DNA of 64,000 bases, taken from positions 64,001 through 128,000 of the forward strand of contig JAZDIN010000025.1 of NCBI GenBank assembly GCA_043804895.1. Reading direction: 5' to 3'. The notes under the pieces were generated by a model, which ran no database searches, was not told the DNA's origin, and was given only the letters and a program-made list of their open reading frames with translations. The translations under genes and the position numbers were made by a program. Positions 3,539 to 22,809 of this stretch are shown here, in pieces. Position 1 is the first letter of the stretch. The number at the start of each line of letters is the position of its first letter. Source of the stretch: Candidatus Altiarchaeota archaeon. Its GTDB lineage: Archaea > Altiarchaeota > Altiarchaeia > IMC4 > SCGC-AAA252-I15.

Positions 3539-3618
3539 TGGTCTGCTAAGACTATTGTTAAGTAATATATTTATCCTCAATCCAACGGTTTTTAGCATAC
3601 ACTGACATAGCATAAACC

Positions 3619-4398: not shown

Positions 4399-4448
4399 TG
4401 CACCATGCTATCTCAGAGGTGTTACTCACAGGGCGCAGAAAAAAGGTT

Positions 4449-5159: not shown

Positions 5160-5164
5160 TCTAC

Positions 5165-6289: not shown

Positions 6290-6306
6290 ATTAGGGCTAA
6301 TATTAT

Positions 6307-7248: not shown

Positions 7249-7335
7249 ACTACGTACTTATCTAATGCGAGCCTTTATAAGACCGCTTTATCCACATCCT
7301 AATTAACACGCCCTCAAATAACTACCTGAAGTTAG

Positions 7336-8400
7336 GTGTCCAAAACGAGTCTAATACGTCGGATAACGCGGTTTATGGTGAATCTAAGGTATGTGCTGAA
7401 GGTTTGCAAGCCGCGACTCTATTTACGTCTGATAAAAACTTACATACTCATAGCCTTCGGCGCAAGACCGCTGCGTTACGTTGACTTCGCTCTTGATTAC
7501 CGCTGCAACCTGAAGTGCGAGCACTGTTTCGCCACCGTATTGGAGAAGCCCAAGGGCGCTCGGAAGATGACACTCGAAGACTATCGCAGGGTCGCTGACG
7601 AGTGCATGAGTGAAGGGGCGATACAGTTCTCATTCCAAGGCGGCGAACCCCTCCTAATCAACAACCTGGCCGAAATAATAGCATGCTTCAAACCAGACTG
7701 GAACCTAATCTCTGTGACAACGAACGGAACACTCCTCAACGAGGATAGGCTAAAATACCTCAAGAAGGCAGGAGTCGACATACTGACTGTGAGCCTCGAC
7801 AGCGGCATACCCGATGAGCACGACTCATTCAGAGGCCTCAAAGGAGCATTCGACAAGACTGTCTCAGGCATAGAGCTAGCATTGAAATCAGGCTTGAAAG
7901 TAACTGTCGGGACAGTGGTCTCTCACAGCAACCTCCGCTCCGATGGACTTAGGAAGCTATTAGAATGGGCTAAGGGCAGGAAACTCCTAGTGACACTCGC
8001 ACTGGCCGTTCCAGCGGGACGGTGGCTTGACAACAAGGGCATACTCCTGACAGAGCAGGACATGACATATGTCCATAAGCTTTCGTCAGAAAGCCAGTTC
8101 ATAACAACGGATATCGAAGCAAATTTCATATCATACGGGTGCGGGGCAGGGAAGGAGATACTTTACATCACCCCCTATGGTGATGTGTTCGTATGCCCGT
8201 TCATACACATAAGATTCGGCAACGTGTTCGAGGAGAGCATAAAGGCCATACGTGCAAGGGCGCTTAGGAACAAGTATCTAGACCACTACCACGACAAATG
8301 TCTCGCAGCACAGGACAGGGAATTCATCGAGAAATACCTCTCCAAGACGTTCGGACAAAAACAACTACCACTAGACTACAAAGAAGTCTTCAGTGATTAA
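7336..8400 (+). CDS. Radical SAM protein with C-terminal SPASM/twitch-like domain
   Basis: CNLKCEHC, GGEP, TNGT, C-terminal CGAG..YITPYGDVFVCPF. Confidence 0.9.
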   Translation: MSKTSLIRRITRFMVNLRYVLKVCKPRLYLRLIKTYILIAFGARPLRYVDFALDYRCNLKCEHCFATVLEKPKGARKMTLEDYRRVADECMSEGAIQFSFQGGEPLLINNLAEIIACFKPDWNLISVTTNGTLLNEDRLKYLKKAGVDILTVSLDSGIPDEHDSFRGLKGAFDKTVSGIELALKSGLKVTVGTVVSHSNLRSDGLRKLLEWAKGRKLLVTLALAVPAGRWLDNKGILLTEQDMTYVHKLSSESQFITTDIEANFISYGCGAGKEILYITPYGDVFVCPFIHIRFGNVFEESIKAIRARALRNKYLDHYHDKCLAAQDREFIEKYLSKTFGQKQLPLDYKEVFSD

Positions 8401-9379
8401 CATGGCAAAGGTCTTCGTCACAGGCGCTTCAGGGTTCATCGGCTCAAACCTTGTTCGTAGGCTTGTTGAAGACGGCCATGACGTCTCTGCCATGATGAAT
8501 AGGCACCCCTACCATCCACTTCTTGAAGGCGTAAAGTTCGAACGCGTTGTCGGAAACCTAACTGAGCCGACCTCCTTCAGGGAGGCTCTTGCAGGATGCG
8601 ACACCGTCTACCACTGCGCTGCGTTGATAACGTTCCGCGGAGGCTACAATGAACCCTACAAGGTCAACGTCGAGGGGACCCGTAATATCCTGGATGTTTC
8701 ATTGGGTGCTAGAGTAAGGAGGTTCGTGTTCACCAGCGCATGCGTCACCCTAGGCATATCAAAGTCGCCGGATGTCGTGCTTGACGAGTCCTCCAAATTT
8801 GCGCCGCCGAAGTCCTGGGTCTACGCTAACACGAAGCACTTGGCTGAAGAGATGGTGATGTCCTACTCAAAGAAAGGAATGGATACAGTCTCTTTGAACC
8901 CTTCCACAGTATACGGTGCCGGAGACCATTCCCTAAACAGCGGGTTCACAATAAAGAAGGTTGCTGAAGGTAAGGCAATTTTCGCACCACCAGGCGGAAC
9001 AAGCTATGTCTCAGTCAACGACGTCGTAGATGCTCACATCCTAGCCATGAACAAGGGAGTGTCTGGTGAGCGTTACATAATCTCAAGAGAGAACCTCACA
9101 TATAAAGAACTCTTCAACCGTATAGCCGACGCAGTCAAATCCACCCGGGTTAAGTATGTGTTGCCAAAAATACTACGATATCCTGCATACTATCCCATGG
9201 TTGCTATTGAACAACTCATAACTCCCCCAATTCCATCACGCCTAATTGATGAGCTTTTCATCTTCAAATACTATAACAACCAAAAGGCCGTCCGTGAGCT
9301 TGTTTGGGCTCCAAAAGAGGATTTAGGCGCAGCAGTGCTTGAAGCCGTAGAATATTACAGAAAGTACAATTTGTTTTGA
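8393..9379 (+). CDS. NAD-dependent epimerase/reductase (dihydroflavonol reductase/HpnA-like extended SDR)
   Basis: GASGFIGS, VNVEGTRN, YANTK, NPSTVYGAGD, DVVDAHILAM..G.SGERYI. Alternative start ATG 8402. Confidence 0.85.
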   Translation: MINMAKVFVTGASGFIGSNLVRRLVEDGHDVSAMMNRHPYHPLLEGVKFERVVGNLTEPTSFREALAGCDTVYHCAALITFRGGYNEPYKVNVEGTRNILDVSLGARVRRFVFTSACVTLGISKSPDVVLDESSKFAPPKSWVYANTKHLAEEMVMSYSKKGMDTVSLNPSTVYGAGDHSLNSGFTIKKVAEGKAIFAPPGGTSYVSVNDVVDAHILAMNKGVSGERYIISRENLTYKELFNRIADAVKSTRVKYVLPKILRYPAYYPMVAIEQLITPPIPSRLIDELFIFKYYNNQKAVRELVWAPKEDLGAAVLEAVEYYRKYNLF

Positions 9380-9401
9380 CTGATTGAAATGGGGTGTTGG
9401 T

Positions 9402-10799
9402 ATGTCTCTTAGGATATGTCTGGTGATGCCGAAGATAGATGACAACAACTTGACTCCGCCCCTTGGTCTCCTGTACATAGCCGCTGTGTTGGAAAAGGAA
9501 GGCCACACGGTAAAATACTTCGACGCCAGGATAGAAGGCGACGTCATAGGTAAGCTAAAGGAATTCAGGCCTGATGTCCTCGGCGTTACAGCAGTCACTC
9601 CGTCTTTTCTTTCAGCTGTGGAGATAGCGGAAAACGCAAAGAAGGCACTGCCAAAATTAAAGGTAGTGTTTGGCGGGCCGCATCCCTCAGCCCTACCTAA
9701 GGAGACCCTTGAATCTGGGCCGGTAGACTTTGTTGTGATAGGCGAGGGGGAGTATCCGATGCGGGATCTCTGCAGGCTACTTGGGGAGGGCGAGGATCCT
9801 TCAACGGTCGCGAATCTAGCCTACATGAAAGACAGAAGATACGTGCGAAACGCCAGAGTCAGAATACTCACCGAGGAGGAGTTGAATTCGCTACCCTTTC
9901 CAGCACTACACCTGCTTGATGTTGAGAGATACTTCACAGTGGACAAGTCGTATGGCGTGTTCCTCAAAGACCGCCGCAACCTGCCGATCATATCGAGCCG
10001 CGGATGCCCTAGTTCATGCACCTACTGTAGCAGGATGATGGGAGCAAAGTTCAGGGGTCGCACTCCAGAGAGCGTATTAGCTGAGATGGAGCATCTAATC
10101 AGGGACTTCAATGTGGGGGAAATACACATAGTCGATGACAATTTCACCCATGACCGTTCGAGGGCGATGAGGATACTAGATGGCATAATAGAGAGGAAAT
10201 TCAACATAGCAATAAAGTTCCCCAATGGTATGCGTGCCGACAGGACCGACCCGGAGCTCTTCATGAAGATGAAGCTGGCCGGGGTGTACTCTATAGGATT
10301 CGGGATAGAATCTGGTTCTCCGAGGATTCTGGAGTTGATGAGAAAAGGTGTAAAAATAGAAAGGGTCGCCCAGGCCATAAGGGATGCGAAGGAAGCCGGC
10401 TTATTGGTCGGGGGGGCTTTCATCATAGGATACCCTGGAGAAAACAAGGAGAGCATACTGGAGACCATAAAATTCGCAACAAGCGTGCCGCTTGACACGG
10501 CAAGCATAGTGACTATTGTCCCGATGCCTGGCACAGAAGTCAGGAGGATATGCGAGGAGGGGGGGTATCTTACCGAAGACGCCAAGGACTGGAGCAAATA
10601 TTTATTCATTAGAAACCGTCCATACAAGCTATTCGAAACAGAGCATCTCAGCTTCGAGGACATAAAGAAATACACTGACTTGTTCCACAAGCGATTCTAT
10701 ATGCGTCCAACATACGTTTTGAGGATGCTTAAGGTGCTGAACATAACCCAGATAATAAGGGGTGTGAAGACCGTATTCTTTCCCTTCCTTGACCATTAA
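9402..10799 (+). CDS. B12-binding radical SAM protein (class B methyltransferase-like)
   Basis: PPLGLLYIAA, GGPHP, GEGE, SRGCPSSCTYC, GIESG, FIIGYPGE. Confidence 0.92.
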   Translation: MSLRICLVMPKIDDNNLTPPLGLLYIAAVLEKEGHTVKYFDARIEGDVIGKLKEFRPDVLGVTAVTPSFLSAVEIAENAKKALPKLKVVFGGPHPSALPKETLESGPVDFVVIGEGEYPMRDLCRLLGEGEDPSTVANLAYMKDRRYVRNARVRILTEEELNSLPFPALHLLDVERYFTVDKSYGVFLKDRRNLPIISSRGCPSSCTYCSRMMGAKFRGRTPESVLAEMEHLIRDFNVGEIHIVDDNFTHDRSRAMRILDGIIERKFNIAIKFPNGMRADRTDPELFMKMKLAGVYSIGFGIESGSPRILELMRKGVKIERVAQAIRDAKEAGLLVGGAFIIGYPGENKESILETIKFATSVPLDTASIVTIVPMPGTEVRRICEEGGYLTEDAKDWSKYLFIRNRPYKLFETEHLSFEDIKKYTDLFHKRFYMRPTYVLRMLKVLNITQIIRGVKTVFFPFLDH

Positions 10800-10843: not shown

Positions 10844-11590
10844 ATGGCAACAGCCGACGACGTAAAGGATGCGAACAGGCGATTTTTCGACTTAGCAGCC
10901 GACGTCTACGAGGGTGTTGACAAACGGCGTGGCGATAAGGTTAGCAGATGGCTTGACGACGGCATAGGTGAGTTGAGTAAGAGAGCTACTGGTGGCGCGT
11001 TACTCGACATCGGATGCGGGACGGGATTTGTGATGCGAAAGTCAAATGGCAAGTTCAACCTCATAGTCGGCGTTGACATAAGCCCGAACATGCTAAAGCA
11101 GACTAATGTCGGTTATCCTGTCTGCGCTGACACCGATTACCTCCCATTCAAGGGCGGAGTCTTCGATGCCGCGGCGTCTGTGGCTGTGCTACATCACATA
11201 CTCGACCACAAGTCTATGTTCCAAGAAGCGCAGAGGGTCCTCAGGAAAGGTGGTGTATTCTACAGCGACCATGACATAGACTCCGAGTTCGTTAAAAAGT
11301 TCGGCTGGCTTGTAAGGTTGAGGCGGAGATTCTGCGACAATAGCATAGCCTATCTCAGGGCTAAAAAAGACCTCACCAAGGAACTGTATGAGAAATCAGA
11401 GATACACCACGACGGAGTTGACTCCCCTCTGCTCAAGACTCAACTCCAAGATGCAGGATTCTCAAAAGTGAAAGTCAGATACCACTGGCTCGGCCTAAAC
11501 ACAGCCCTGAATGTTATACTATCACTTCCCCCCCTCAAATATCTGCCTCACGGATTCGCACCGAACGCATCATTTTGGGCTGTAAAATGA
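10844..11590 (+). CDS. Class I SAM-dependent methyltransferase
   Basis: LDIGCGTG, VDISPNML, LPF..GVFD, VLHHI. Confidence 0.9.
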   Translation: MATADDVKDANRRFFDLAADVYEGVDKRRGDKVSRWLDDGIGELSKRATGGALLDIGCGTGFVMRKSNGKFNLIVGVDISPNMLKQTNVGYPVCADTDYLPFKGGVFDAAASVAVLHHILDHKSMFQEAQRVLRKGGVFYSDHDIDSEFVKKFGWLVRLRRRFCDNSIAYLRAKKDLTKELYEKSEIHHDGVDSPLLKTQLQDAGFSKVKVRYHWLGLNTALNVILSLPPLKYLPHGFAPNASFWAVK

Positions 11591-13014
11591 AGATACTCCT
11601 CATTAACCCGCCGAACTACCACATAGCCAAATCCTCCTCAGGCTGGGACATGGAAATAGACAACATCGGACTTTACCCCCCCATCGGCCTCATGTACATC
11701 GCTGCATACATGAGGAAGAACACAGACTATGAAATCAGGATTCTTGACACGCTAGTTGACAGATTAAGCTACGATGAGATAGGCGAACACGCCAGAAAAT
11801 ACAACCCAAACCTTGTGGGAGTAACCTCCTTCACCCTAACATTCTACGACGTTATGGAAACCATCAAATCCGTACGGAAGGCCTGCCCGGGGGCGCACAT
11901 AAACGTCGGAGGCCCACACACTTTCCTCTGGTGGGAGGATACGATCAAGAAACCAGAAGTAGATTCAGTGCTCCTGGGTGAAGGTGAAGTTTCCTTCACC
12001 CAGCTTGCAGAAACGCTTGAAAGAAAAGGCGAACTGAAGGGTGTTAAAGGTATTGTACTTAAGGATGGCGACAAAATCATAAAGACCGGGAACGGTGAAC
12101 TAATCAGGAATCTTGATGAACTGCCTTTCCCAGCATTTGATCTGGTCCCGTATAAGAGGTACAACTCCATCAATTCACGCGAAAAATCACTGGCAGTCAT
12201 ATTCAGCTCTAGGGGGTGTCCATTCCAATGCACATACTGCGACAAGACCAACTTCCTCTACAGGGGCAGGAGCGTCGAGAACATACTGGATGAGATGCAA
12301 CAGTACTATTCTGCCGGAATCCGCGAGTTCCTCTTCTTCGACGACCTGTTCAACATAAACCCCAAAAAGGTCATCGACGTCTCGGAGGGGATAATGCGCC
12401 GCGGATTCAAGATACGCTGGACGTTCAGGGCTAGGGTGGACCAGGTCACAGACGAAATGGTGAAGGCAGCGAAAAAATCAGGGTGCACCCTAATATCATT
12501 CGGGGTCGAAGACTGCACAGACGAAGGCCTGCGGATGATAAAAAAGGGGATAACGACAGAGCAGGTACTGGAGGCGGTCGAGACTGCCAAAAAGCATGGC
12601 CTTGAGACGAGCACCAACTGGATTATTGGCCTCCCACGGCACAAGAGCGAGAAGGATGTGATGGAGCTTTTGGATTTCGCGAAGAAGGTCGATTCCACAT
12701 ATGCTGAATTCACCATACTAGTGCCCTATTACGGCACGCAAATATACTGGGAGGGTATAACGAAGGGGGTTATCAAGGCCGGCATATGGGAGGGTTTCGT
12801 TAGGAGTCCACAACCAGACTTCCTCCTGCCCATGTGGGAAGAACACCTAAGTCGTGAAAAACTAAGCGAACTATATCACAAATGCTACAAAGGCTACTAC
12901 TGGAGGTCGAAATACGTGCTAAAAAGCCTCCTTAACACAAAAAACCTCAACGAACTATGCAAGAAAGCAATCGCAGCCATGAAGATACTGGGTGTGGCGT
13001 CAAAGAAAAAATGA
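11587..13014 (+). CDS. B12-binding radical SAM protein (class B methyltransferase-like)
   Basis: MKILLINPP, PPIGLMYIAA, GGPH, GEGE, SRGCPFQCTYC. ATGA overlap with the upstream gene. Confidence 0.92.
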   Translation: MKILLINPPNYHIAKSSSGWDMEIDNIGLYPPIGLMYIAAYMRKNTDYEIRILDTLVDRLSYDEIGEHARKYNPNLVGVTSFTLTFYDVMETIKSVRKACPGAHINVGGPHTFLWWEDTIKKPEVDSVLLGEGEVSFTQLAETLERKGELKGVKGIVLKDGDKIIKTGNGELIRNLDELPFPAFDLVPYKRYNSINSREKSLAVIFSSRGCPFQCTYCDKTNFLYRGRSVENILDEMQQYYSAGIREFLFFDDLFNINPKKVIDVSEGIMRRGFKIRWTFRARVDQVTDEMVKAAKKSGCTLISFGVEDCTDEGLRMIKKGITTEQVLEAVETAKKHGLETSTNWIIGLPRHKSEKDVMELLDFAKKVDSTYAEFTILVPYYGTQIYWEGITKGVIKAGIWEGFVRSPQPDFLLPMWEEHLSREKLSELYHKCYKGYYWRSKYVLKSLLNTKNLNELCKKAIAAMKILGVASKKK

Positions 13015-13964
13015 TAAAGAAAAAATACCTTGCATTAGTGAGCGTAGCACTAATACTCATAATAATCTACTCGAGCAATCCTTCATCTCTGGTCGAGAAT
13101 ATACTTAAGATTAAGGTTGAAGTCCTACCCAAACTTGCCGCCCTCCTTATCATCTCGATTTTCTTGAGGACATTAAAGTGGCAGTTTGTCTTGAACAAAA
13201 CAAAAAGGGTCTCGTTTGCATCGCTCCTCCCCGTTAACCTATCTGGTGTGCTTTTGCGCGATACACTGCCTGCAAAGGTCGGTGAGCCACTTAAGGCGTT
13301 GCTTTTGAAGGATATCTTCAGCATACCAATCTCCAAGGGTATAGTATCTGTGGTGTGGGATCGACTCATTGACTTCATAGCGCTTGCATCGCTTACAGTC
13401 CTGTTTCTCGCATTAACTCTGGGAAATTTTGGAAGTAGCGGTGTCTTAGCAGGGTTGGGTGGAATTGCAATCGTACTTATTGCATGCGTTGTGGCCGTTT
13501 TCGGGCTGATTGATAAGAAAGTCGGAGCCATAGTCATAAAACCCTTCTCAAAAACCCTGTTCTTCAGGAGGTTTCTTACTGTAGATGCGGTGGATTCATT
13601 TTATTCGACCAGCGTAGGATTGACTAATGTTGTAATCAACTACATATTAACTCTTTTTTCAGTATGTGTGGAGGGCCTTATGTTCTATGTTGTGTTATTG
13701 TCGATGGGTGTTAACATTAATCCACTATACGTTGTATCTGCCTTTTCCTTCTCTGTAATCTGTGGTTCTGTCAGTTTCCTCCCAGCAGGCATAGGTTCAC
13801 TTGAGGCGGTCTTCATATTGTCTCTGATGTACGACGGCGTAAACCAAAGTCAGGCTGCTGCTTGCATAATATCTGTCCGGTCATTCAGCATACTATCAAT
13901 GTATCTACTTGGACTTCTATCCTCCACAGTATGTATAAAAAAAGGCTCCAGCTTAGAATCCTAG
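13011..13964 (+). CDS. Lysylphosphatidylglycerol-synthase-TM (UPF0104) flippase-like membrane protein
   Basis: LPAKVGE, DRLID, PAGIGSLE motifs; about 8 TM helices. Confidence 0.8.
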   Translation: MIKKKYLALVSVALILIIIYSSNPSSLVENILKIKVEVLPKLAALLIISIFLRTLKWQFVLNKTKRVSFASLLPVNLSGVLLRDTLPAKVGEPLKALLLKDIFSIPISKGIVSVVWDRLIDFIALASLTVLFLALTLGNFGSSGVLAGLGGIAIVLIACVVAVFGLIDKKVGAIVIKPFSKTLFFRRFLTVDAVDSFYSTSVGLTNVVINYILTLFSVCVEGLMFYVVLLSMGVNINPLYVVSAFSFSVICGSVSFLPAGIGSLEAVFILSLMYDGVNQSQAAACIISVRSFSILSMYLLGLLSSTVCIKKGSSLES

Positions 13965-14945
13965 CTTCTCCTTCAAGATTAAGATAATGCCCTCAACCAT
14001 GCCAACACCCATGGCTAGGCTTCTGTATATCATGAGTGGGAATACTAGGAGTGTCTCAGTTTTTTGAAATTTCTTAGATATTGTTATAGTGTAGTTGAGC
14101 ATGAGCGCCAGGTAGAAGATGAGAAGGAGGATATATGGTGTGGTTAGTTGTGGCTCTACTACTACTGGCAACAGACTTAAAATAAGAACCCACACGAGCG
14201 GCGGTGTTATCATTAGCGTCGGATTCGCCAAGTTGTCTCCTTTGATGCCGTGCGGGTGTTTTATAAGTATCTGGAACCTGGACTTTGAGGTTTGGGATTG
14301 CTGCCTCCAGTATGATTTAAGGCCCGCCCTGTGGTAATGCCAGACCCTTGCTTTAGGGTTGAATTCTATCTTGTAGCCTGCCTCGTTGACCCTGTATCCT
14401 ATGTCTACGTCGTAGCCTGTCCTGAACTGAGTGTCATAGCCCCCAACCTCTTCAAGTACTTTCCTCCTGTATGCTAGGTTGCTGTCCTGCGGCGAGAGGA
14501 TGTATCTTGGGTATCTTGAGTATCTGTATTCCAGCTCGTATCCTATTAGTCTCTGGAGGATGTTCATACCATCCGGCGTTATCACATTCCCCGTGGCTCC
14601 GCCCACCGCGGAATCCTGGAAGGGCTTTAGTATCTCAGTCAGCCAGTCTTTCGCGACGACGCAGTCTGCATTGGTCACCGCAACCAAATCGGACTTAGCG
14701 GCCTTCCACCCGATGTTGATTGCGTTTCCAGCCCCGAGGACGCCACCCCCCTTCAGTATCGTCGTCTCTATCCTAAGGTGTTCCCTCTTGAACTTTCTCA
14801 TAATCTCGAAAGTCTTGTCTGTGCTGCCGTCATCAATCAGAATCAATTCGAACCCATCTGGGAATTCCAACTCGGCTATCGACTTAAGGCACATCTCTAA
14901 TGTGTCTTGCCCGTTCTTGCATGGTATCACAATGCTTGCCTTCAC
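13953..14945 (-). CDS. GT2 glycosyltransferase with C-terminal TM helices
   Basis: SIVIP, IDDGSTDKT, NADC, EVGGYD, DVDIGYR. Confidence 0.9.
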   Translation of the reverse strand: MKASIVIPCKNGQDTLEMCLKSIAELEFPDGFELILIDDGSTDKTFEIMRKFKREHLRIETTILKGGGVLGAGNAINIGWKAAKSDLVAVTNADCVVAKDWLTEILKPFQDSAVGGATGNVITPDGMNILQRLIGYELEYRYSRYPRYILSPQDSNLAYRRKVLEEVGGYDTQFRTGYDVDIGYRVNEAGYKIEFNPKARVWHYHRAGLKSYWRQQSQTSKSRFQILIKHPHGIKGDNLANPTLMITPPLVWVLILSLLPVVVEPQLTTPYILLLIFYLALMLNYTITISKKFQKTETLLVFPLMIYRSLAMGVGMVEGIILILKEKLGF

Positions 14946-15847
14946 TTAAGCTGCCTCCTGATAAGCTGGTCTAAGAGTATGTTCTGGCTTCTTATGGAGT
15001 GTAGTATAAGGCCGATTGCTATGAACTGTATGCCAAGGATTATGAAGGAGAGGGATGCGATTAGGCTGAGCATCATCATCTGGCTGTATGGAGTCGACGT
15101 CAGTGAGAGAATCGATATTATGAGGCCAATTGTGAGGGACACTATCGACAGTATCGAGAACAGGAACATCGGCCTATAGTCCCTCAACAGGGTTATTATC
15201 GTCCATAGTATTATGAAGCCGTCACTGAAGGAGTCGAGCTTGGATTCGCTACCTTTCGGGCGGGACCTGTATCTTATCGGAACCTCCTTTATTCTGAAAT
15301 TCTCTATTAGGGTCCTTATCGTCAGTTCAGTCTCTATCTCAAAGCCACTTGATATAAGGTTAAGGTGTTTGGCAAGGTTCCGGTTCAACACCCTGTATCC
15401 AGAGAGCACGTCCTCAAGTTTCATGCCGAAGGAAGTGTTTATCATGGTGACTATAGCCCAGTTGCCAAAGACATGGAGCCTCTTCATCGAATCCGATTCC
15501 TTGTCCCCAATCCTTGAGCCTACTGTCATGTCACATTCGCCGTCCAAGACTGGCTTTAGAAGATTCTTAACGTCCTCTGCAGGGTACGTGTCGTCCCCGT
15601 CAACAAATACGTAGTAGTCTGCATCGATGTTGTCAAGGGCGGATTTCATCACGAAACCCTTGCCTCTGCGCGTTTCAGTCAGGACCTTGGCCCCGGCTTT
15701 CTTTGCAGCCTCCACAGTCCCATCGGTTGAGTTGTTGTTGTAGACTATTATGTCGGCGTCTGGAATCTCCCTCCTGAAATCCTTCACCACCTTTCCTATA
15801 CTCTTCTCCTCGTTCAAGGCCGGGATTATTACTGCTGTCCTCACCAT
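14942..15847 (-). CDS. GT2 polyprenol-phosphate glycosyltransferase with 2 C-terminal TM helices
   Basis: VIIPALNEE, VDGDDTYP, SGYR, GFEIETE, RPKGSESKL. Start ATG 15847 (the longer ORF runs into the upstream gene). Confidence 0.9.
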   Translation of the reverse strand: MVRTAVIIPALNEEKSIGKVVKDFRREIPDADIIVYNNNSTDGTVEAAKKAGAKVLTETRRGKGFVMKSALDNIDADYYVFVDGDDTYPAEDVKNLLKPVLDGECDMTVGSRIGDKESDSMKRLHVFGNWAIVTMINTSFGMKLEDVLSGYRVLNRNLAKHLNLISSGFEIETELTIRTLIENFRIKEVPIRYRSRPKGSESKLDSFSDGFIILWTIITLLRDYRPMFLFSILSIVSLTIGLIISILSLTSTPYSQMMMLSLIASLSFIILGIQFIAIGLILHSIRSQNILLDQLIRRQLK

Positions 15848-17226
15848 TTTTTCCAAAACATCGCAGGCAACGCATACCTTGCCGCACTCAAAATGTGCTC
15901 CAATTCCCCGGGGTTCCTGAGGGTCCTCAGCATATACTTGGGTCTCAGGTAATAAGACCTGACGCCCCTTTTCGCCCACTCCCTGATTTCCTCGTTGCTC
16001 ATGTGCGGGTAGCTAACTTCGCCGTTTTTTAGGCAGCCTCTTGAATTGAGCTCCGCATACATCGGGGCTGCCTTCGTGATTACTGGTATTGAGTACTGTA
16101 TTGTCTCCACGTCAAGCGAATTAGCCCAATTTACCGTGTTTTTTATCGTCTCCTCCGTCTCTCCTGGCAGTCCGACTACGAAGTCTGCGTGTATCTCAAG
16201 GCCAGCTTTTTTAGCGTCTTTCGTGAACCTCTCCATAGTCTCCCTTGTAATGCCTTTCCTTATGTTTTTCAGTATCGTCGGGTCAGCGGATTCATACCCT
16301 ACATGCAACACCCTACATCCCGCCTTCTTCATCTTCTCCATCGTCTCAAGCTTCAGGTCGCCTTTGGCGTAGCAGCCCCATGTCACATCCAGCTTTTGCC
16401 TTATCACCTCCTCAGAAATCTCATCAGCCCACCATCCTGGCAGCATGTCATCTTGGAAGAACTGCTCCTTAATCTGCGGGAGGTTCTCCTTCACCCATCT
16501 CATCTCCTCCACGACATTGCTGGCGCTCCTGTGCCTGTACACTCCGGCCTCAGTTAGGGTGTTAACCCACAGGCAGAAGGTGCACATACCCCACACGCAC
16601 CCGCGGCCTGTGAACATGTCAATGAACGGGTGCTTTTGCGCCACGACATGGTAGTTCCTGAAGTCCAGGTTCCTGCTGTAGAATTCGGTCACGAATGGGA
16701 AACTGTCTAAGTCTCCCTCAGGAATAGGAGGCCTCGGCTTGTTCTTAACGATTTTTCCGTTCCTCCTCCACATCAACCCCTCGATTTCAGCCGAGTTTTT
16801 GCCTGCAGCCAGGTCCCGTATGGTGTAGTCGAACTCACCGTATGCGACGTAGTCTATCTCATCAGAGGAGTTCATGACAGCGTCCGTGTCAATCGTAACC
16901 CAAGGGCCTGCGTAGACGATTCTCGAGCCAGTCTGCGACTTTATCTCATCGGCCAGTTTGGAGTCGTCTTTGAGGCTTCTCGTCGAACTATACAGTAGCG
17001 TCAAATCAGGCGATAACTTCTTAGCCTTCTCAAGTACCTGTTCAGGCGTCAGGTTCTCTGGTGGGGCGTCGACAAGCTTGACATTATGTCCCTCACGTTC
17101 AAGCAGGGCTCCGCAGTATCCGAGCCATATGGGGTACCATTGCGTGCCTGAGATTGACACTCCTTCACATCGCGCGTTCCGCATGAAATACTTCACGTAC
17201 GGCGGATTCAGTAACAAGACATCCAT
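15841..17226 (-). CDS. B12-binding-type radical SAM protein, HpnJ/calditol-synthase-like
   Basis: LLNPP..WYPIWLG, HPFIDMFTGRGCVWGMCTFCLW, VGYES, IHADFVVGLPGET. Family assignment is from recalled HpnJ signatures. Confidence 0.75.
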   Translation of the reverse strand: MDVLLLNPPYVKYFMRNARCEGVSISGTQWYPIWLGYCGALLEREGHNVKLVDAPPENLTPEQVLEKAKKLSPDLTLLYSSTRSLKDDSKLADEIKSQTGSRIVYAGPWVTIDTDAVMNSSDEIDYVAYGEFDYTIRDLAAGKNSAEIEGLMWRRNGKIVKNKPRPPIPEGDLDSFPFVTEFYSRNLDFRNYHVVAQKHPFIDMFTGRGCVWGMCTFCLWVNTLTEAGVYRHRSASNVVEEMRWVKENLPQIKEQFFQDDMLPGWWADEISEEVIRQKLDVTWGCYAKGDLKLETMEKMKKAGCRVLHVGYESADPTILKNIRKGITRETMERFTKDAKKAGLEIHADFVVGLPGETEETIKNTVNWANSLDVETIQYSIPVITKAAPMYAELNSRGCLKNGEVSYPHMSNEEIREWAKRGVRSYYLRPKYMLRTLRNPGELEHILSAARYALPAMFWKKW

Positions 17227-17318
17227 TGCTGTTCATCTCATGTTTGCCAGCATTTATCCCCTACCCTTGCTGTCGTACTCTATGTATGGCTTTATCCCCT
17301 TAAAGCGGTCGCATACTC

Positions 17319-18038
17319 TCATCTTAACCTTAGGATTTTGGCAACCCTTGAAAGGAACCCTAAGGCGAGGACTCTCGAATATCCTGGGCCTATGTTCATG
17401 TAGTTGAGCTTTGACTTTCCCTGCCTGCGGTCGACGTAGCTGATGGGTATCTCGCCTATTCTATAACCTTCTATCGTGGCTTTCACCACAAGTTCGGAGT
17501 GTATCTCAGGCCCCGTTGACTTCAGATTCAGGGATTCGAACGTTTTTTTGTGGAATCCCCTGTAGCCGCTTGTTATGTCAGCCACTTTGACACTGATGAG
17601 CGCTCTGGAGACTATGTTGTAGGTGCCTGATATAACATTCCTTGTGGTCCCCCTCTTGAGGTTACCCCCGCTCATGAACCTTGAACCAACTACCACATCA
17701 TGCTCCTTCAAACTATTAACGAAGTTTGCTATCTCCTTTGGGTCATGGCTTAGGTCAGCATCCATGAAAACCACCAATTCGTTTGATGCAACGCCGACAC
17801 CCTCCCTGAGTGCATTGCCGAGGCCATTTCTGACCTCTCTAGCAAGCACTTTAACATTCCCGTATACGGAGTTCATCTTCCGCGCCAGTTCTGGTGTCCC
17901 ATCAGTTGATAAGTCGTCCACGACAATAACCTCACCATGTAAGCCTGCAGCATCGAAAATCCTCTCTACCCTTGGTATCAGCTCTTTTATGTTTTCAGCC
18001 TCGTTTATGGTCGGTATAACAACTGAAACTGAGTCCAT
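17319..18038 (-). CDS. GT2 polyprenol-phosphate glycosyltransferase (DPM1-like)
   Basis: VIPTINE, VDDLSTDGT, MDADLSHDP, GSRF, DRRQGKSKL. Confidence 0.9.
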   Translation of the reverse strand: MDSVSVVIPTINEAENIKELIPRVERIFDAAGLHGEVIVVDDLSTDGTPELARKMNSVYGNVKVLAREVRNGLGNALREGVGVASNELVVFMDADLSHDPKEIANFVNSLKEHDVVVGSRFMSGGNLKRGTTRNVISGTYNIVSRALISVKVADITSGYRGFHKKTFESLNLKSTGPEIHSELVVKATIEGYRIGEIPISYVDRRQGKSKLNYMNIGPGYSRVLALGFLSRVAKILRLR

Positions 18039-18042
18039 ATGT

Positions 18043-18933
18043 TCAACCGCCAGCCTCCTTTATCCTCCCTAACCCCTCTGCCATACTGGTTTTTGGTTTC
18101 CAACCTAATGCGCAGAGTTTTGTGTTGTCTGAGCGTATATCCTTACTCTCCTTCCTCAACTTAGCTGAATCCAGATTAACCTCTGGTCTGCGTCCGTATA
18201 ATCCAGCCGCTGTCTTAACAACGTCGCCTAATTGCATGCTTTTTCCGCCGCCGACGTTGAAGATGTTTAATCCCCTGACTCGTTTTTCTATGAGTATCAT
18301 GTATGCGTCCACTAGGTCGTCTACGTATAGAAAGTCCCTCTTAACTGTGATGTTTCCCAACTTGAGTTTATTGCCTTCTGAAAGCTGATTTAAAAGTGTG
18401 GGTATGAAAAAGTCGCCCGCCTGTCCTGGCCCGTAGATATTAAACTGTCGAAGTATTATGAAAAATCCTCCCCGTTCCTCGTGGAATACTCTTATTAGGT
18501 CTTCAGCAGCCTTTTTAGACCTACCGTAGCTGTTCGTCGGATTTGTTGGGTGTTTTTCGTCAACAGGCAGATACTTCGGTTCACCATAAACCTTCGAGGA
18601 TGATGCGAAGATGTAATTCGCATTCTCGCACTTGGTATGGAACTTAAGCGTATTGTATGTTCCAATGACGTTTATATCGTACGTCTTAAGCAAATCTTCC
18701 TCTGCTTCGGGTATAAATGAAATTCCTGCAAGATGCACGACACAGTCTATGTCCAAGGGCAGGCTCCTGAAACTCCGGAAGTCCGATACATCAACACTGT
18801 GGTGTTCCACACCTGCCAATCCGGCACGCTTGATGTCGGCGCCGACAACTGCATACCCGCCCTCGACAAGGCGTTTGCACAGGTTGGCTCCTATGAATCC
18901 AGAGTAGCCGGTGACCAGAATGTTACCAGTCAA
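18043..18933 (-). CDS. NAD(P)-dependent nucleotide-sugar reductase/epimerase (Rmd-like)
   Basis: GYSGFIG, YGRSK, RQFNIYGPGQ, GNITVKRDF. Likely TTG start 18933 overlapping the upstream gene's end. Confidence 0.8.
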   Translation of the reverse strand: MTGNILVTGYSGFIGANLCKRLVEGGYAVVGADIKRAGLAGVEHHSVDVSDFRSFRSLPLDIDCVVHLAGISFIPEAEEDLLKTYDINVIGTYNTLKFHTKCENANYIFASSSKVYGEPKYLPVDEKHPTNPTNSYGRSKKAAEDLIRVFHEERGGFFIILRQFNIYGPGQAGDFFIPTLLNQLSEGNKLKLGNITVKRDFLYVDDLVDAYMILIEKRVRGLNIFNVGGGKSMQLGDVVKTAAGLYGRRPEVNLDSAKLRKESKDIRSDNTKLCALGWKPKTSMAEGLGRIKEAGG

Positions 18934-19993
18934 TCCTACCCCACCATTTATCCTTGTTTTCTGCGTAGTATTTGATGGTCTCCTTAACACTTTCCCTTCT
19001 GTCATGCCGGGGTATCCATCCTGTCTCTCTCCTCATCTTCGTATAATCCACTCCAAGCCTCATCAAGTCGGTCTTACCTGGTCTGTACCTCACTTTATCC
19101 TCCCTCACCTTGACAGTACCCCAATACCCTTCCTCCTGTCCACATTCTATTATGAATTTGGCCCAGTCGCCAATGCTAATGTCCTTGCCGTAGCCGTAGG
19201 AGTATGTCTGCCCTGGCTTCCCTTTGAGTGTCGCGTAGATGTGTCCTCTCACGCCATCTAGGACGTAGGTGAAGTCTCTCGTAGGCTTAAGTGCCCCCAA
19301 TAGCACCTCCTTCTTGTTCAGGGCCTGCGTTATAATTGTCCCTGTCACATACCTGGGACTCTGCCTTGGGCCGTAGTTGTTGAACATACGGGTTATAACC
19401 GTCGGCACGCCATAGGCGTTGTAGAAGTTCTTGCATAGGAAGTCTCCCGCGACTTTAGAGACTGCATAAGGGCTTTCGGGATTGATAGGGCTTCTCTCGT
19501 TGAATATGATTATGCCATCCTTGTTGAACGTGTACAGGTCTTTCATCTCCTCTACCATGTTGCCGAATTCTTCGCTCGTGCCTGCAAAGTCCATTTTCAA
19601 CAGGTCAAGGTCCTCATCGACTACCGATTGTAGGATGTTTAGCGTCCCGATGGTGTTCGCTTGGAATGTCTCATAAGGGCGCTGCCAGCTTTCCCCTACG
19701 TGTGCCTGCGCCCCAAGGTGGAAGATTATCGGCTTGTCTTTTGCCTCAGCCTTGAGCCTCCTGATAGTCAACCTCACTGACAAGGGGTCGGCTAGGTCTC
19801 CTCTGTGCACCTTGACTTTCCTCAGGAGATGCCCGATGTTCTTCATCTCCCCGCTTGATGTCGCCCTAATGAACACATGAACGTCGCTTCCGTATTCAAC
19901 AAGCTTCTCTGTCAGGTGGCTTCCCATGAAGCCGTCAGCTCCCGTCACAAGGATCGTCCTATCCCTCAACTCCCCCACAAGCCTGTCTTCCAT
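18923..19993 (-). CDS. NDP-sugar 4,6-dehydratase (GDP-mannose/dTDP-glucose 4,6-dehydratase family)
   Basis: GADGFMGSHL, GAQAHVGESW, GTSEE, YAVSK, RMFNNYGPRQ. Confidence 0.85.
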   Translation of the reverse strand: MEDRLVGELRDRTILVTGADGFMGSHLTEKLVEYGSDVHVFIRATSSGEMKNIGHLLRKVKVHRGDLADPLSVRLTIRRLKAEAKDKPIIFHLGAQAHVGESWQRPYETFQANTIGTLNILQSVVDEDLDLLKMDFAGTSEEFGNMVEEMKDLYTFNKDGIIIFNERSPINPESPYAVSKVAGDFLCKNFYNAYGVPTVITRMFNNYGPRQSPRYVTGTIITQALNKKEVLLGALKPTRDFTYVLDGVRGHIYATLKGKPGQTYSYGYGKDISIGDWAKFIIECGQEEGYWGTVKVREDKVRYRPGKTDLMRLGVDYTKMRRETGWIPRHDRRESVKETIKYYAENKDKWWGRIDW

Positions 19994-20147
19994 AACCAAG
20001 ATATTATTTTCCCCCGTTAAAATATAGCGGATAGGGAATACTTTGGAATTTCGGTTTTCCCTATCCAATATATCTAATAATCCTGGGGTTTGGTGAATTC
20101 TATTCTATGAAAGTTTAATTCTCAGGATTATTCGCTATAGCCAAAGT

Positions 20148-20495
20148 TCACTGGCCAAATCCTATGAGGGTGACACCCAGGATGATGAACGCTATCCCTG
20201 CCCACTTTAATGTAGTCATCCTCTCCCCAAGGTATTTTTGTGAGAGTACGCACACCCAGATGTAGCCTGTTGAGACAAGCGGGAAGAGCACCGAAAGTTC
20301 ACCGCCTTTTATGCCGATGACGTAGAAAACCGTGGATGACCCGTATATCAGCACTCCCTTCATCAGGTCGAAGTTCGTCAATATGGACTTGATGTTGGGT
20401 TTCAGCTTTCCTGCTCCTTTCTTGAAGTAGAGCGAGCCAAACGAGCCAACGAATGCTGCAAGCAAGACCATAGCTGCAGCCCACGCCTCTGTCAT
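20148..20495 (-). CDS. Small 4-TM DMT/EamA-type protein (ArnE/ArnF-like)
   Basis: 115 aa, GELSVLFPL, YLGERMT..KWAGI. Confidence 0.75.
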   Translation of the reverse strand: MTEAWAAAMVLLAAFVGSFGSLYFKKGAGKLKPNIKSILTNFDLMKGVLIYGSSTVFYVIGIKGGELSVLFPLVSTGYIWVCVLSQKYLGERMTTLKWAGIAFIILGVTLIGFGQ

Positions 20496-20860
20496 TTACC
20501 CCCCTCCGTGCTGCCGTAACCTATCAGGATGACTCCAACGACTATCGAGAATATCCCCGCCCATTTCAGGGGGTTCATGCTGTCTGTTGCGAAGAACATC
20601 GGTGACATGATTGCTACCCAGATGAAGTTCATAGCATATATCGGGTAAAGCACAGACAGCTCACCGTACTTTAATGAGACTACAAGTATCGCGGCGCTGA
20701 GGCCGTAGAGACAGTAACCGATTATTAGTGGTATGTTCGTTGCTACTGACATTATGTCAAGTACTGTGCTGTTTACTCCGGTCTTGATGAGTATCTGACC
20801 TGACGCTGCGAACAATGTGGATAGGAACACCAGCCCCATAGCCCATCGTCTAGTCTTCAT
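20492..20860 (-). CDS. Small 4-TM DMT/EamA-type protein (ArnE/ArnF-like), paralog of the downstream gene
   Basis: 122 aa, AASGQILIK, GELSVLYPI, KWAGI. Confidence 0.75.
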   Translation of the reverse strand: MKTRRWAMGLVFLSTLFAASGQILIKTGVNSTVLDIMSVATNIPLIIGYCLYGLSAAILVVSLKYGELSVLYPIYAMNFIWVAIMSPMFFATDSMNPLKWAGIFSIVVGVILIGYGSTEGGK

Positions 20861-21537
20861 CCCAAACCCAGCCTATATCTGTACAACCTATACAGGTGTC
20901 TGAGGTAGTTTATGTACTCCCCTAAGTTCAGTTTGCTTTCGCCAACCCTGCGGTCGCGGAAAATGTAAGGCACCTCAACGACTCTCCCATACTTCCCCTT
21001 TACCAATATCTCAAGCCCAATCTTGAAGCCGACTGCATCCAACTTTACACCCTCAATAACCTCCCTTCTGAGGAAGAAATATCCTGACATGCAGTCTCTC
21101 ACACCAGTTAGAGGTCTTGCAAGCATTTTCGCCCCCCTTGAGGTGAGTCGCCTCATAATAGGCCAGTTCTCGACTCCTCCTCCTTCAATGTATCGGCTTG
21201 CGAACACCATCCCCGCATCCCCATTCAGGATTGGCTGTATAAGTTTCGGAATAAGTCTCGGGGGGTGGCTGAAGTCAGCGTCCATGACACCGATTATCTC
21301 ACCTGATGATGCATTGAGCCCGTCAAGTATAGCCGAAGACAATCCCAGCTTACCTTTCCTGTGGATGACCTTAATCCCGTATGTGACAGCTAGCTGGTCC
21401 GCCAACTCCCCCGTCCCATCCGGGCTTCCATCATCTACCACGACGACTTCGACATCTGCATTCGAGAGTATGTCCTCTACAAGCCCCTTAAGGTTCTTCA
21501 CTTCATTGTATGTTGGCACGACGACTGAAGCACGCAT
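20857..21537 (-). CDS. Polyprenol monophosphomannose synthase (DPM1-like GT2)
   Basis: [36 protein letters not shown]. Confidence 0.9.
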
Positions 21538-21593
21538 TTTTATGGTTAATGCATATAATTAGTGGAATATATTCGGTTTTGAGGTGGTTTCAG

Positions 21594-22250
21594 GTGAAAT
21601 TCTTCATAGACACAGCCAATGTGGATGAGATAAGGACTGCCAAGTCCTGGGGCATACTAGACGGGGTCACAACCAATCCGACGCTACTTGCTAAGGAGGA
21701 ATGCGACTTCAAGACAGCAGCAAAGGAGATACTATCCCTCGTCGAAGGCCCAGTAAGCCTTGAGGCGGTAAGCGCAGACGCTGAGGGGATGGTGAAGGAG
21801 GCCAGGGAACTCTCCAAGCTCGGCAAAAACGTCGTGGTTAAGATACCCATGACCCCCGAGGGGATTAAGGCAGTGCAGAAACTAAGTTCAGAGGGAGTGA
21901 AGACGAATGTCACGCTCCTCTTCAGCGCCAACCAAGCCCTCATAGCTGCGAAAGCAGGGGCAACCTACGTAAGCCCGTTCATAGGCCGCCTTGACGACCA
22001 AGGATGGGATGGTGTTCAACTCATAGCCGACATTCTTGAAATATACTCAAACTTTGGGTTCAAGACCGAGGTCATAGCTGCGAGCATCAGGGACCCGGTT
22101 CATGTGGCAGACTGCGCGAGGCTCGGCTGCCATGTCGCGACAGTGCCCTTCGGAGTCCTAAAGAAGATGTTCACACACTCTCTCACTGACGTCGGAGTAC
22201 AGAAGTTCCTTGAGGACTGGAAGAAGGTCGAAGGCAGGTGCAAAAAATAG
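21594..22250 (+). CDS. tal: Transaldolase (TalC/FSA-size family)
   Basis: FFIDTAN, GVTTNP, VVKIP. SLEAV (Glu) and SPFIGR (Phe) fit transaldolase rather than FSA. GTG start 21594. Confidence 0.9.
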
Positions 22251-22251
22251 G

Positions 22252-22809
22252 ATGGACAGAATATCAAAGGAGATTGAGGAAAGCGTTGTAGTGAAGAGAA
22301 CGCTCAAAGTAAAGGACATCGAGGAAGCAACCAAGCTGATAGTGGACGCACTCAAATCAAAGCGCAAGATTCTCCTTTGCGGAAACGGTGGAAGCGCCGC
22401 TGACTGCCAGCACATCGCAGGCGAATTCGTAGGCAGGTTCAAGAAGGAGCGGCAGGCCCTGCCTGCAATAGCGCTCTCGACTGACACGTCAATCCTCACC
22501 GCCCTCACCAACGACTACGGCGGAGACATAATATTCTCACGGCAGGTCGAGGCCCTCGGGAATGAGGGGGATGTGTTGGTTGCGATATCAACCAGTGGAA
22601 CCTCCTCCAACATACTCAAAGCAGTCGAGGCAGGAAGGAAGAAGGGGATGAAGGTCGTCGGATTCACAGGAGCCAAAGGCCAGAAACTGAAAAGCCTCTC
22701 AGACGCCTGTATCATGGTCGGCTCAGACGACACCCCACGGATACAGGAAGCCCACATCACCGCAGCACACATAATATGCGGACTGGTCGAGGAAAAAGTT
22801 GGTAACTAA
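22252..22809 (+). CDS. gmhA: D-sedoheptulose-7-phosphate isomerase (phosphoheptose isomerase)
   Basis: CGNGGSAADCQH, ISTSG.S, PRIQEAH. Confidence 0.93.
   Translation: MDRISKEIEESVVVKRTLKVKDIEEATKLIVDALKSKRKILLCGNGGSAADCQHIAGEFVGRFKKERQALPAIALSTDTSILTALTNDYGGDIIFSRQVEALGNEGDVLVAISTSGTSSNILKAVEAGRKKGMKVVGFTGAKGQKLKSLSDACIMVGSDDTPRIQEAHITAAHIICGLVEEKVGN

Follow-up and report, generated by a model that had tools for sequence, protein, structure and literature searches.

To our knowledge, carbocyclic sugar head groups of membrane lipids have been connected with only two genes: hpnJ, of bacteriohopanetetrol cyclitol ether biosynthesis (Burkholderia/Methylobacterium type), whose proposed reaction turns a lipid-linked hexosamine into a cyclopentitol ether, and cds, which encodes calditol synthase in Sulfolobus acidocaldarius. 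The activity of neither has been reconstituted. MoeK5, the moenomycin sugar C-methyltransferase, is a B12-domain radical S-adenosylmethionine (SAM) enzyme that acts on a lipid-linked sugar; OxsB, from oxetanocin A biosynthesis, is the sole B12 radical SAM ring contractase that we know to be structurally characterised; and three-component lipid-carrier glycosylation, of the ArnC/ArnE-F/ArnT or GtrA/B type, brings together a family 2 glycosyltransferase (GT2) that acts as a polyprenyl-phosphate sugar synthase, a flippase and a GT-C transferase. Excerpts of two articles present Cds as a radical SAM enzyme of archaea for which the contraction of a lipid-linked hexose to a cyclopentitol ether has been proposed (PMC13459092, PMC9092360); OxsB is described, in the part of a third article available to us, as catalysing a cobalamin-dependent radical SAM contraction of a sugar ring and as belonging to a different similarity-network cluster from HpnJ (PMC9204698); and the HpnJ domain is reported, in the accessible portion of a preprint, solely from genomes with SHC and HpnH (10.1101/2025.07.29.667474). 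Here we describe a gene at positions 15841-17226 of a 64,000-nucleotide stretch of DNA, hereafter the window, from a Candidatus Altiarchaeota archaeon (assembly GCA_043804895.1, contig JAZDIN010000025.1, positions 64,001 to 128,000). Its product, P0001, is by sequence a soluble radical SAM enzyme with a cobalamin domain, and it belongs to an uncharacterised clade, the sister of bona fide HpnJ in a large 'HpnJ-like' radiation. P0001 probably tailors a membrane-anchored sugar (on a lipid or a lipid carrier) that is the product of a membrane GT2, at the cytoplasmic face and within a glycan or glycolipid pathway; as for the reaction, we tentatively rank first a contraction of the HpnJ type, in which the pyranose ring of a terminal, non-donor hexose would become a cyclopentitol. 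The initial annotation of this DNA had proposed a cyclitol ring-contraction system. The locus is real, conserved and uncharacterised, and as a ring-contraction system it is no more than a candidate.

Inspection of the open reading frames (ORFs) finds the gene uninterrupted on the minus strand from 17226 to 15841, with a coding capacity of 461 residues. Every motif that had been quoted for this protein is present in its intact form: LLNPP at residues 4-8, WYPxWL (as WYPIWL) at 30-35, HPFIDMFTGRGCVWGMCTFCLW at 199-220 and the CX4CX2C cluster motif CVWGMCTFC, with its cysteines arranged as C210-X4-C215-X2-C218. Pfam assigns a B12-binding domain (PF02310, 50.5 bits) to residues 27-139 and a Radical_SAM domain (PF04055, 78.6 bits) to residues 206-368, and a hydropathy scan of the protein found no hydrophobic or transmembrane segment. 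The AlphaFold 2 (AF2) model has a mean predicted local distance difference test (pLDDT) score of 88.8, and its fold neighbours in the PDB are TsrM, MgmA, CysS, AprD4, OxsB and TokK, at 15-20% identity; these neighbours by sequence and fold are generic B12 radical SAM enzymes and do not discriminate between reactions. The ESM Atlas also holds a confident model of P0001, whose top structural matches are HpnJ clusters at a template modelling (TM) score of 0.92.

How close, then, is P0001 to HpnJ? Among NCBIfam models the best match is HpnJ (TIGR03471) at 373.9 bits, under the equivalog cut-off of 577.6, and the next is BchE at 116.2; methylase families score 99.1 (rSAM_ocin_1), 93.4 (PhpK), 80.5 (Sden_1168), 64.2 (MJ_0865), 40.9 (HpnR) and 37.5 bits (KedN5). 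True or named HpnJ proteins reach 741-844 bits on the HpnJ model, and members of the P0001 clade reach 214-374 bits. PGAP-named HpnJ proteins found by tblastn on annotated plasmids of Mycetohabitans, Paraburkholderia, Burkholderia and Caballeronia are 34-36% identical to P0001 (E ~1e-77), and pairwise alignment with the Mycetohabitans protein gives 35% identity end to end over 457 residues. The alignment to HpnJ spans residues 1-437, and the two proteins have in common their two-domain architecture, their length (about 470 residues for HpnJ), their predicted fold and a ...TGRGC...CTFCLW core. They differ in the cluster motif itself, which in named HpnJ is CX3CX2C (GCRSRCTFCLW; CRSRCTFC), so that the loop of P0001 is one residue longer. 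The CX4CX2C spacing that had been singled out earlier is real but not an HpnJ feature; a CxW(G/N)xC(T/I)(F/Y)C form is found in 120 of 120 nearest relatives among the matches listed, query included.

Phylogenetic analysis gives the same picture of a close neighbour outside HpnJ proper. Our more careful tree was built in IQ-TREE from 63 rows under LG+C20+F+G4 by posterior mean site frequencies (PMSF), and a second in FastTree from 143 rows; the rows comprised full-length representatives, named HpnJ sequences, a homolog from a Lawsonia plasmid, the genome's own paralogs, phylum hits and named homologs from metagenome-assembled genomes (MAGs), with fragments, fusions longer than 560 residues and most near-identical top hits left out. 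In the 63-row maximum likelihood tree, the P0001 clade (19 rows, 100/100) lies outside the clade of named HpnJ sequences (12 rows, 99/99) as its sister, and the join has an ultrafast bootstrap (UFBoot) support of 98 and an SH-aLRT support of 88; the FastTree analysis recovers the same pairing with support 94. Other HpnJ-like clades branch further out, one of them with three other Altiarchaeota sequences and one with the Lawsonia protein, and the window's two other B12 radical SAM proteins group with the outgroup in both trees. The grouping with class B methylases away from HpnJ that would have counted against the initial proposal was, as far as HpnJ is concerned, not seen in the scores of the methylase families above or in the comparison with a MoeK5-like protein (26.8% identity). 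What holds of the proposed HpnJ-likeness is thus a score of 374 bits against at most 116 elsewhere and a sister clade at 98/88, but P0001 itself is, by our reading of the sequences, not HpnJ: its score is under the cut-off, its cluster spacing is different and its host lacks the hopanoid pathway. Family searches of the genome, which is 88.7% complete, returned no match to SHC or HpnK, and they did not find HpnH, for which the best match (60.4 bits) is the SPASM gene of the window.

The genes around P0001 speak to its substrate. The radical SAM gene is the fourth of a minus-strand operon that runs from a 4,6-dehydratase-like short-chain dehydrogenase/reductase (SDR) through an epimerase/reductase-like SDR and a GT2 to P0001, an AglJ-type GT2 and a membrane GT2 that we call GTc. 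All three of the previously noted minus-strand GT2 genes are confirmed, but the 139-nucleotide (nt) overlap of the second with the radical SAM gene arises from choosing its longest ORF, which starts at 15979. The AglJ match begins only at residue 49 of that ORF, and an ATG at 15847 encodes MVRTAVIIP..., so the gene probably starts there and overlaps the radical SAM stop by 7 nt. The AglJ-type gene in turn overlaps GTc by 4 nt (14942-14945), and we take the radical SAM gene, from this arrangement, to be translationally coupled to two GT2 genes. The resulting GT2-radical SAM-GT2-GT2 unit (13953-18038) is compact and coupled. By family, the AglJ-type GT2 is of the polyprenyl-phosphate sugar synthase type, and three further GT2s like dolichyl-phosphate mannose synthase (DPM) occur in the surrounding region, an accessory surface-glycan or glycolipid island of this Altiarchaeota genome (a MAG of 1.58 Mb in 71 contigs). 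Six plus-strand genes, from the SPASM radical SAM gene at 7336 to the LPG_synthase_TM gene that ends at 13964, converge on the operon, and all of them but the HpnA-like SDR were absent from the initial annotation. The island holds four radical SAM genes in all (P0001, two further B12-type genes and one SPASM gene), and both its flippase-like protein (TIGR00374) and its GT-C transferase (PMT_2) score above their family cut-offs.

Set beside hopanoid gene clusters, in which hpnI-hpnJ-hpnK are followed by an LPG_synthase-domain gene of the same Pfam family (PF03706) as the window's gene at 12957-13964, the P0001 locus has several familiar parts: a membrane GT2 adjoins the radical SAM gene, with an LPG_synthase_TM-family gene and an HpnA-like SDR in the vicinity. 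The latter, already named as HpnA-like from its sequence at 8393, does have HpnA (TIGR03466) as its best match and recurs as a partner in related loci. Unlike hopanoid clusters, the locus adds a class I methyltransferase, a SPASM and further B12 radical SAM enzymes and a GT-C transferase. The island also resembles the three-component lipid-carrier systems in having AglJ/DPM-type GT2s, flippase-like membrane proteins and a PMT_2 GT-C, and it differs from them in the radical SAM step, which full-text literature searches found in none of those described; in what the same searches returned, neither the P0001 clade nor any radical SAM reaction within lipid-carrier glycosylation was described.

A profile scan of genome contigs, with a 15-sequence alignment of closer relatives as the query, located 59 related loci, and in 55 of these we compared neighbouring genes, which were called with a greedy ORF picker and clustered by BLASTP. 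Many loci are cut by contig ends, so all partner counts are lower bounds, and the loci are not mutually independent; as a control, a random gene of the same locus was drawn 2000 times. Genes of the GTc family adjoin the radical SAM gene in 13 loci, against a random mean of 5.4, and lie within 3 genes in 25 (random mean 13.9) and within 6 in 32; not one of the 2000 draws reached either 13 or 25. The window's class I methyltransferase family is adjacent in 8 loci (random mean 1.5; 0/2000 draws reach 8), within 3 genes in 11 and within 6 in 13. For GT2s of the DPM/AglJ type the corresponding counts are 7, 17 and 27, and for SPASM radical SAM genes 7, 16 and 21; here adjacency is only weakly enriched (133 and 180 of 2000 draws, respectively, reach the observed value), and the 16 loci with a SPASM gene within 3 genes compare with a random mean of 10.3, a count that 23 of 2000 draws reach. 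Other B12 radical SAM types are found within 6 genes in 25/55 loci, a figure for which we claim no enrichment, since a random draw may adjoin the real target of the same cluster and the control is not valid for them. For each of 23 neighbouring B12 radical SAM genes in related loci, the best match in the window is the third B12-domain paralog (9384-10799).

The HpnA-like SDR is the best window match of 8 SDR genes, each no more than 4 genes away from the radical SAM gene, in 8/55 loci; seven of them match it at 34-47% identity, the eighth (L057) is weak (24.6%, 77 bits), and the typical arrangement is SPASM-SDR-methyltransferase-radical SAM. Membrane proteins are frequent as well. PMT_2-like proteins occur within 6 genes in 19/55 loci and the LPG_synthase_TM protein in 6/55, and where the next gene downstream is on the same strand (43 cases), it encodes a polytopic membrane protein of 490-950 residues about 16 times, 8 of these being detectably PMT_2-like and two LPG_synthase_TM. 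Some of these associations have become covalent: among 22 long representatives scanned, the radical SAM protein is fused to a class I methyltransferase in P0123, which belongs to the P0001 clade, and in P0135, P0216 and P0239, to a GT2 in P0154 and P0258, and to a GT4 domain in P0144. The GT2 domain of P0154 is 30% identical to the window's GTc (E 1e-28).

The family to which P0001 belongs is very large. At E <= 1e-3 an exhaustive HMMER search returned 36842 representative clusters, and at E <= 1e-30 it returned 1278. Of the 59 related loci, 56 encode proteins 39-49% identical to P0001, and all 56 are from MAGs. Homologs at 39-53% identity are spread patchily over MAGs named Altiarchaeota, Aenigmatarchaeota, Woesearchaeota, Bathyarchaeota, Methanophagales, Methanosarcinales, Microgenomates, Patescibacteria, Saccharibacteria, Omnitrophota, Planctomycetota, Caldisericales, Chloroflexi, Nitrospinota, Endomicrobiia, Firestonebacteria, Desulfobacteraceae and others; the initial remark that no such system was known in this lineage thus understates the range of close relatives, which extends over many archaeal and bacterial phyla. 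Within Altiarchaeota itself, a match at E <= 1e-60 is present in 10 of 61 genomes, that of the window counted, and in 0 of 4 other genomes of the same genus, and the best within-phylum identity, 49%, is not above that to bacterial homologs. With these figures we rejected the idea of a core Altiarchaeota trait. The gene is, as its distribution suggests, accessory and laterally mobile, and the substrate of P0001 should therefore exist in both domains.

Several members of the wider family deserve a word in their own right. At E <= 1e-30 the HpnJ model matches seven B12-type radical SAM genes of the genome, including genes on contigs C31, C13 and C17; a second HpnJ-like paralog, on contig C50 (275 bits), belongs to another clade, which it shares with a plasmid gene of Eleftheria terrae that lies in a PIG-L deacetylase/GT4 cluster. 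Plasmid 1 of Lawsonia intracellularis (NC_008012.1, 27 kb), a cultured, non-hopanoid host, bears at 8001-9464 an HpnJ-like radical SAM gene whose product is 32.5% identical to P0001 and scores 375.8 bits on the HpnJ model. It is surrounded by GT2s, GalE, five class I methyltransferases and a second radical SAM gene, with SIS, HAD-IIIA hydrolase and GHMP kinase genes also in the cluster (SIS and others within 7026-7607 and 15929-17365), and this plasmid cluster may be a tractable system for the wider HpnJ-like family. LAGLIDADG domains sit between the B12 domain and the radical SAM core of P0139, P0147, P0195 and P0207, three of which also have intein-splicing domains. Finally, an ESM Atlas cluster of 880-residue Gemmatimonadota proteins joins a CDP-alcohol phosphatidyltransferase to a radical SAM part that superposes on P0001 (TM 0.92 by query), a fusion that ties the P0001 fold to lipid head-group synthesis.

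Cds, with which P0001 had also been compared, would catalyse a reaction of the same kind as the one we rank first, but the two proteins do not seem to be specifically related. In searches of 14 named control genomes with the HpnJ model, Sulfolobus acidocaldarius gave a match at E <= 1e-30 and none at E <= 1e-50; P0001 matches at 1e-111, and even some of the generic B12 paralogs of its genome reach 1e-47 to 1e-57. Cds is therefore at most a distant class relative, its genome's best match lying between E 1e-50 and 1e-30, far weaker than that of P0001. Sulfolobales were absent among the 59 loci of the profile scan, and of 10 representatives near HpnJ whose clusters were looked up, one bore a JGI 'HpnJ' name and none an archaeal one. 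According to excerpts of a review, Cds (Saci_1489) was found by elimination among 18 radical SAM genes and not by way of HpnJ homology (PMC13459092). A close HpnJ-Cds homology is, on these comparisons, a doubtful premise, a specific P0001-Cds relationship looks unlikely, and the label 'HpnJ/Cds-like' would better read 'HpnJ-like'.

OxsB shares with the reaction proposed here the contraction of a sugar ring, and its fold matches P0001 at E 1.4e-17; it is unlike P0001 in its sequence (16% identity; TM 0.59), its far larger size and its nucleotide substrate. For MoeK5 our comparison relies on Streptomyces clavuligerus plasmid pCLA1, where an unannotated stretch (2431-10305) encodes an epimerase, an asparagine synthase, an unknown protein, an asparagine synthase-like protein and a B12 radical SAM protein. 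We take the last of these to be MoeK5-like from the Pfam domains of its neighbours and the gene order of the moenomycin cluster, moeE5-F5-GT1-H5-K5; it is just 26.8% identical to P0001 (102 bits) and gives no NCBIfam match at 1e-45. MoeK5 itself shares a similarity-network neighbourhood with HpnJ, as the accessible part of one study describes it (PMC9204698).

What might P0001 do in such a pathway? For its substrate, its topology, the order of steps and the reaction, we infer the following scheme. The coupled GT2s would first attach a hexose, or a hexose modified by the SDRs, to a membrane-anchored acceptor, which could be dolichyl phosphate itself or else a sugar or lipid that dolichyl phosphate already anchors. 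P0001, at the cytoplasmic face, would then cleave SAM, and the resulting 5'-deoxyadenosyl radical would abstract a hydrogen from the sugar, which would be rearranged. The product could be flipped by the LPG_synthase_TM-like protein or by the small EamA-like proteins, and the PMT_2-type GT-C would use it outside the cell. Together, the transaldolase and SIS genes at the border of the island, the genes of the Lawsonia cluster and the 4,6-dehydratase-like SDRs hint at a heptose or deoxyheptose as the possible substrate of the tailoring. Extended to the whole CxWGxC clade, the proposal would be that an enzyme spread by gene transfer among many uncultivated anaerobic archaea and bacteria contracts, in HpnJ fashion, a terminal hexose that the coupled membrane GT2 has put on a polyprenyl-phosphate-anchored sugar or a membrane lipid; in this general form we hold it to be possible and rather doubtful.

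Of the reactions considered, ring contraction has the best phylogenetic support, though that support is modest, and a number of observations weigh against it. P0001 is below the HpnJ equivalog cut-off and carries its one-residue insertion in the cluster loop, which lines the active site; only three alignment columns, F132, L219 and W220, are specific to the P0001 clade and HpnJ while being rare in other HpnJ-like clades, and two of these (L219 and W220) are part of the 'CLW' of P0001. On the HpnJ model, 318-471 bits are reached by other HpnJ-like clades, several of them, likewise uncharacterised, as high as P0001 or higher (P0131 471, P0134 435, P0149 391), and we rejected closeness to HpnJ on the hidden Markov model as a mark of the P0001 clade; because of such scores, the resemblance is a property of the large radiation. 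The genome gave a negative search for an HpnK-type deacetylase, and the neighbours that recall hopanoid clusters are not the same genes: GTc aligns with HpnI at E 1e-5 and 21% identity, and the LPG_synthase_TM protein with the hpn-cluster protein at E 0.037, so that both are relatives at family level and we rejected them as orthologs. GT-C transferases, which often follow the radical SAM gene family in related loci, need a donor with an intact anomeric phosphate. Contraction of the donor sugar itself is therefore incompatible with them, and a contraction would act on a distal sugar, for example one that GTc has added to a carrier-bound sugar. The frequency of class I methyltransferases as partners and fusions also fits a methylation-rich tailoring pathway. 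HpnJ is itself an uncertain guide, its ring contraction having been inferred genetically, from a knockout and without biochemistry, as parts of two articles have it (PMC13459092, PMC9092360), and in the accessible text of another it co-localises at a stringent threshold with the C-methylases Fom3 and MoeK5 in a sequence-similarity network (PMC9204698).

The main rival to ring contraction is C-methylation, in which P0001 would be a cobalamin-dependent radical SAM C-methyltransferase like MoeK5, GenK or Fom3, acting on a membrane-anchored or nucleotide-linked sugar to give a C-methyl or branched sugar in a surface glycan. Characterised B12 radical SAM enzymes are mostly methylases, in the portions of two surveys available to us (PMC12931638, PMC9204698), and the network just mentioned puts HpnJ itself in such company; the B12-binding domain of P0001 is intact, a close homolog, P0011 (50% identity), is named '2-hydroxyethylphosphonate methyltransferase' at its source, and the top solved structural neighbours, TsrM, MgmA, CysS and TokK, are methylases, at 15-20% identity. 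Methylation would also spare the anomeric centre, in keeping with the frequent GT-C neighbour. Every methylase family model, however, stays at or below 99 bits where HpnJ gives 374, the MoeK5-like pCLA1 protein is a remote relative at 26.8% identity, the nearest characterised enzyme in the tree is the non-methylase HpnJ, and class I methyltransferases are present in the pathway already, including one that is fused to a clade member, though C-methylation could be a second kind alongside theirs. We regard C-methylation as a somewhat unlikely but serious reading.

P0001 could instead perform some other radical sugar chemistry (epimerisation, dehydration or deoxygenation, oxidation or C-C coupling), as one of several steps shared among the island's four radical SAM enzymes. 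Related loci, too, often hold several such genes, the clade-specific CxWGxC loop suggests a remodelled active site, and AprD4, a sugar diol-dehydratase, is among the best PDB matches (E 2e-10; TM 0.72-0.74). P0001 has no specific likeness to characterised enzymes of this sort beyond the shared fold, its nearest characterised relative being HpnJ, and we consider these chemistries unlikely. Far less probable still is a substrate that is no sugar at all, such as an isoprenoid lipid or another membrane component, modified in the way that archaeal radical SAM enzymes modify glycerol dialkyl glycerol tetraethers (GDGTs); the location in a glycan island would then be incidental. Enzymes that modify archaeal lipid chains are indeed known, according to excerpts of a review (PMC13459092), and a ladderane-lipid family model scores 80 bits on P0001. 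Yet the clade spans bacteria and archaea, whose core lipids differ, at 39-49% identity, glycosyltransferases, sugar-type SDRs and methyltransferases are its consistent company, whether as neighbours or as fusions, and the radical SAM gene shares translational coupling with GT2 genes.

Within this very large radiation, bona fide HpnJ makes up only a small twig. Members of the radiation sit in glycan and glycolipid operons of organisms that make no hopanoids, where they are translationally coupled to membrane GT2s and in some cases fused with them. If ring contraction has been kept in the sister clade, carbasugar-capped surface glycans and lipids would be widespread in the uncultivated anaerobic biosphere, and the glycans or glycolipids of Altiarchaeota, DPANN, the candidate phyla radiation (CPR), Omnitrophota, Planctomycetota and others would bear ether-linked cyclopentitol (carbasugar) units that resist acid and glycosidases. 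Such units would be new hydrolysis-resistant biomarkers, and the hopanoid hpnI-hpnJ module would be a specialised offshoot of an older glycan-tailoring toolkit. If P0001 turns out to be a methylase or something else, it would still mark an undescribed radical step in lipid-carrier glycosylation.

Table 1. Genes of the P0001 operon and of the surrounding island, in window coordinates
Feature	Position	Strand	Evidence
GT-C membrane glycosyltransferase PMT_2, >=9 hydrophobic segments	1757..3679	-	PF13231 38.2 bits, cut-off 26.1
Another methyltransferase, another GT2, two more SDRs	3619..7248
SPASM-domain radical SAM enzyme	7336..8400	+	Radical_SAM + SPASM (Pfam)
HpnA-like (3-beta-HSD-type) SDR	8393..9379	+	TIGR03466 185.4 bits (cut-off 367.65), SdmB 156, OleD 127.5
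Third B12-domain radical SAM paralog	9384..10799	+	HpnJ 190.6, Sden_1168 181 bits
Class I SAM methyltransferase	10844..11590	+	Methyltransf_11 74.1 bits
Second B12-domain radical SAM paralog, BchE/HpnJ-like, outside the HpnJ-like superclade	11575..13014	+	BchE 185.9, HpnJ 160.5 bits
Flippase-like LPG_synthase_TM membrane protein, ~8 hydrophobic segments	12957..13964	+	PF03706 126.6 bits; TIGR00374 83.4 bits, above cut-off 43.2
Membrane GT2 'GTc', Glyco_tranf_2_3 / MftF-PgaC-HpnI architecture	13953..14945	-	Pfam; MftF 143, HpnI 39 bits; three C-terminal hydrophobic segments
GT2, dolichyl/polyprenyl-phosphate hexose synthase (AglJ) type	14942..15979	-	TIGR04182 AglJ 252.5 bits (cut-off 325); DPhHxTase_Halo 104.5 bits; two C-terminal hydrophobic segments
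HpnJ-like B12-domain radical SAM enzyme P0001	15841..17226	-	Pfam; TIGR03471 373.9 bits; tree
Short soluble GT2 (239 aa), polyprenyl-phosphate sugar synthase-like, directly upstream of the radical SAM gene	17319..18038	-	Glycos_transf_2 102.9, AglJ 112, PpgS 75 bits; no transmembrane segment
SDR, nucleoside diphosphate (NDP)-sugar epimerase/reductase-like	18043..19005	-	Epimerase 171.8; LegB-like 146.7, GalE 120.4 bits, both below cut-offs
SDR, NDP-sugar 4,6-dehydratase-like	18923..20068	-	GDP_Man_Dehyd 211.9; LegB-like 200.4, dTDP-glucose 4,6-dehydratase 155.7 bits, below cut-offs
GT2 (226 aa), then two small overlapping membrane-protein genes (122, 115 aa)	20148..21537	-	One EamA/TMEM234-like; 122-aa protein without Pfam match
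Transaldolase/FSA gene and SIS-domain gene, island border	21510..22809	+

Among the remaining genes of the island (Table 1), the plus-strand LPG_synthase_TM gene is convergent with GTc and overlaps its end by 12 nt, and the PMT_2 GT-C is likely the outer-face transferase. The GT2 gene followed by two small membrane-protein genes has a layout resembling that of ArnC with the ArnE/ArnF flippase pair, and the ArnC model PRK10714 scores just 53.6 bits. Elsewhere in the window, ARAGORN calls a plus-strand tRNA-Leu(GAG) at 50141-50219, which is absent from the Rfam list at the gathering score, and Rfam gives a 106-nt plus-strand tRNA match at 47596-47701 (39.4 bits; no ARAGORN call), which is probably an intron-bearing archaeal tRNA.

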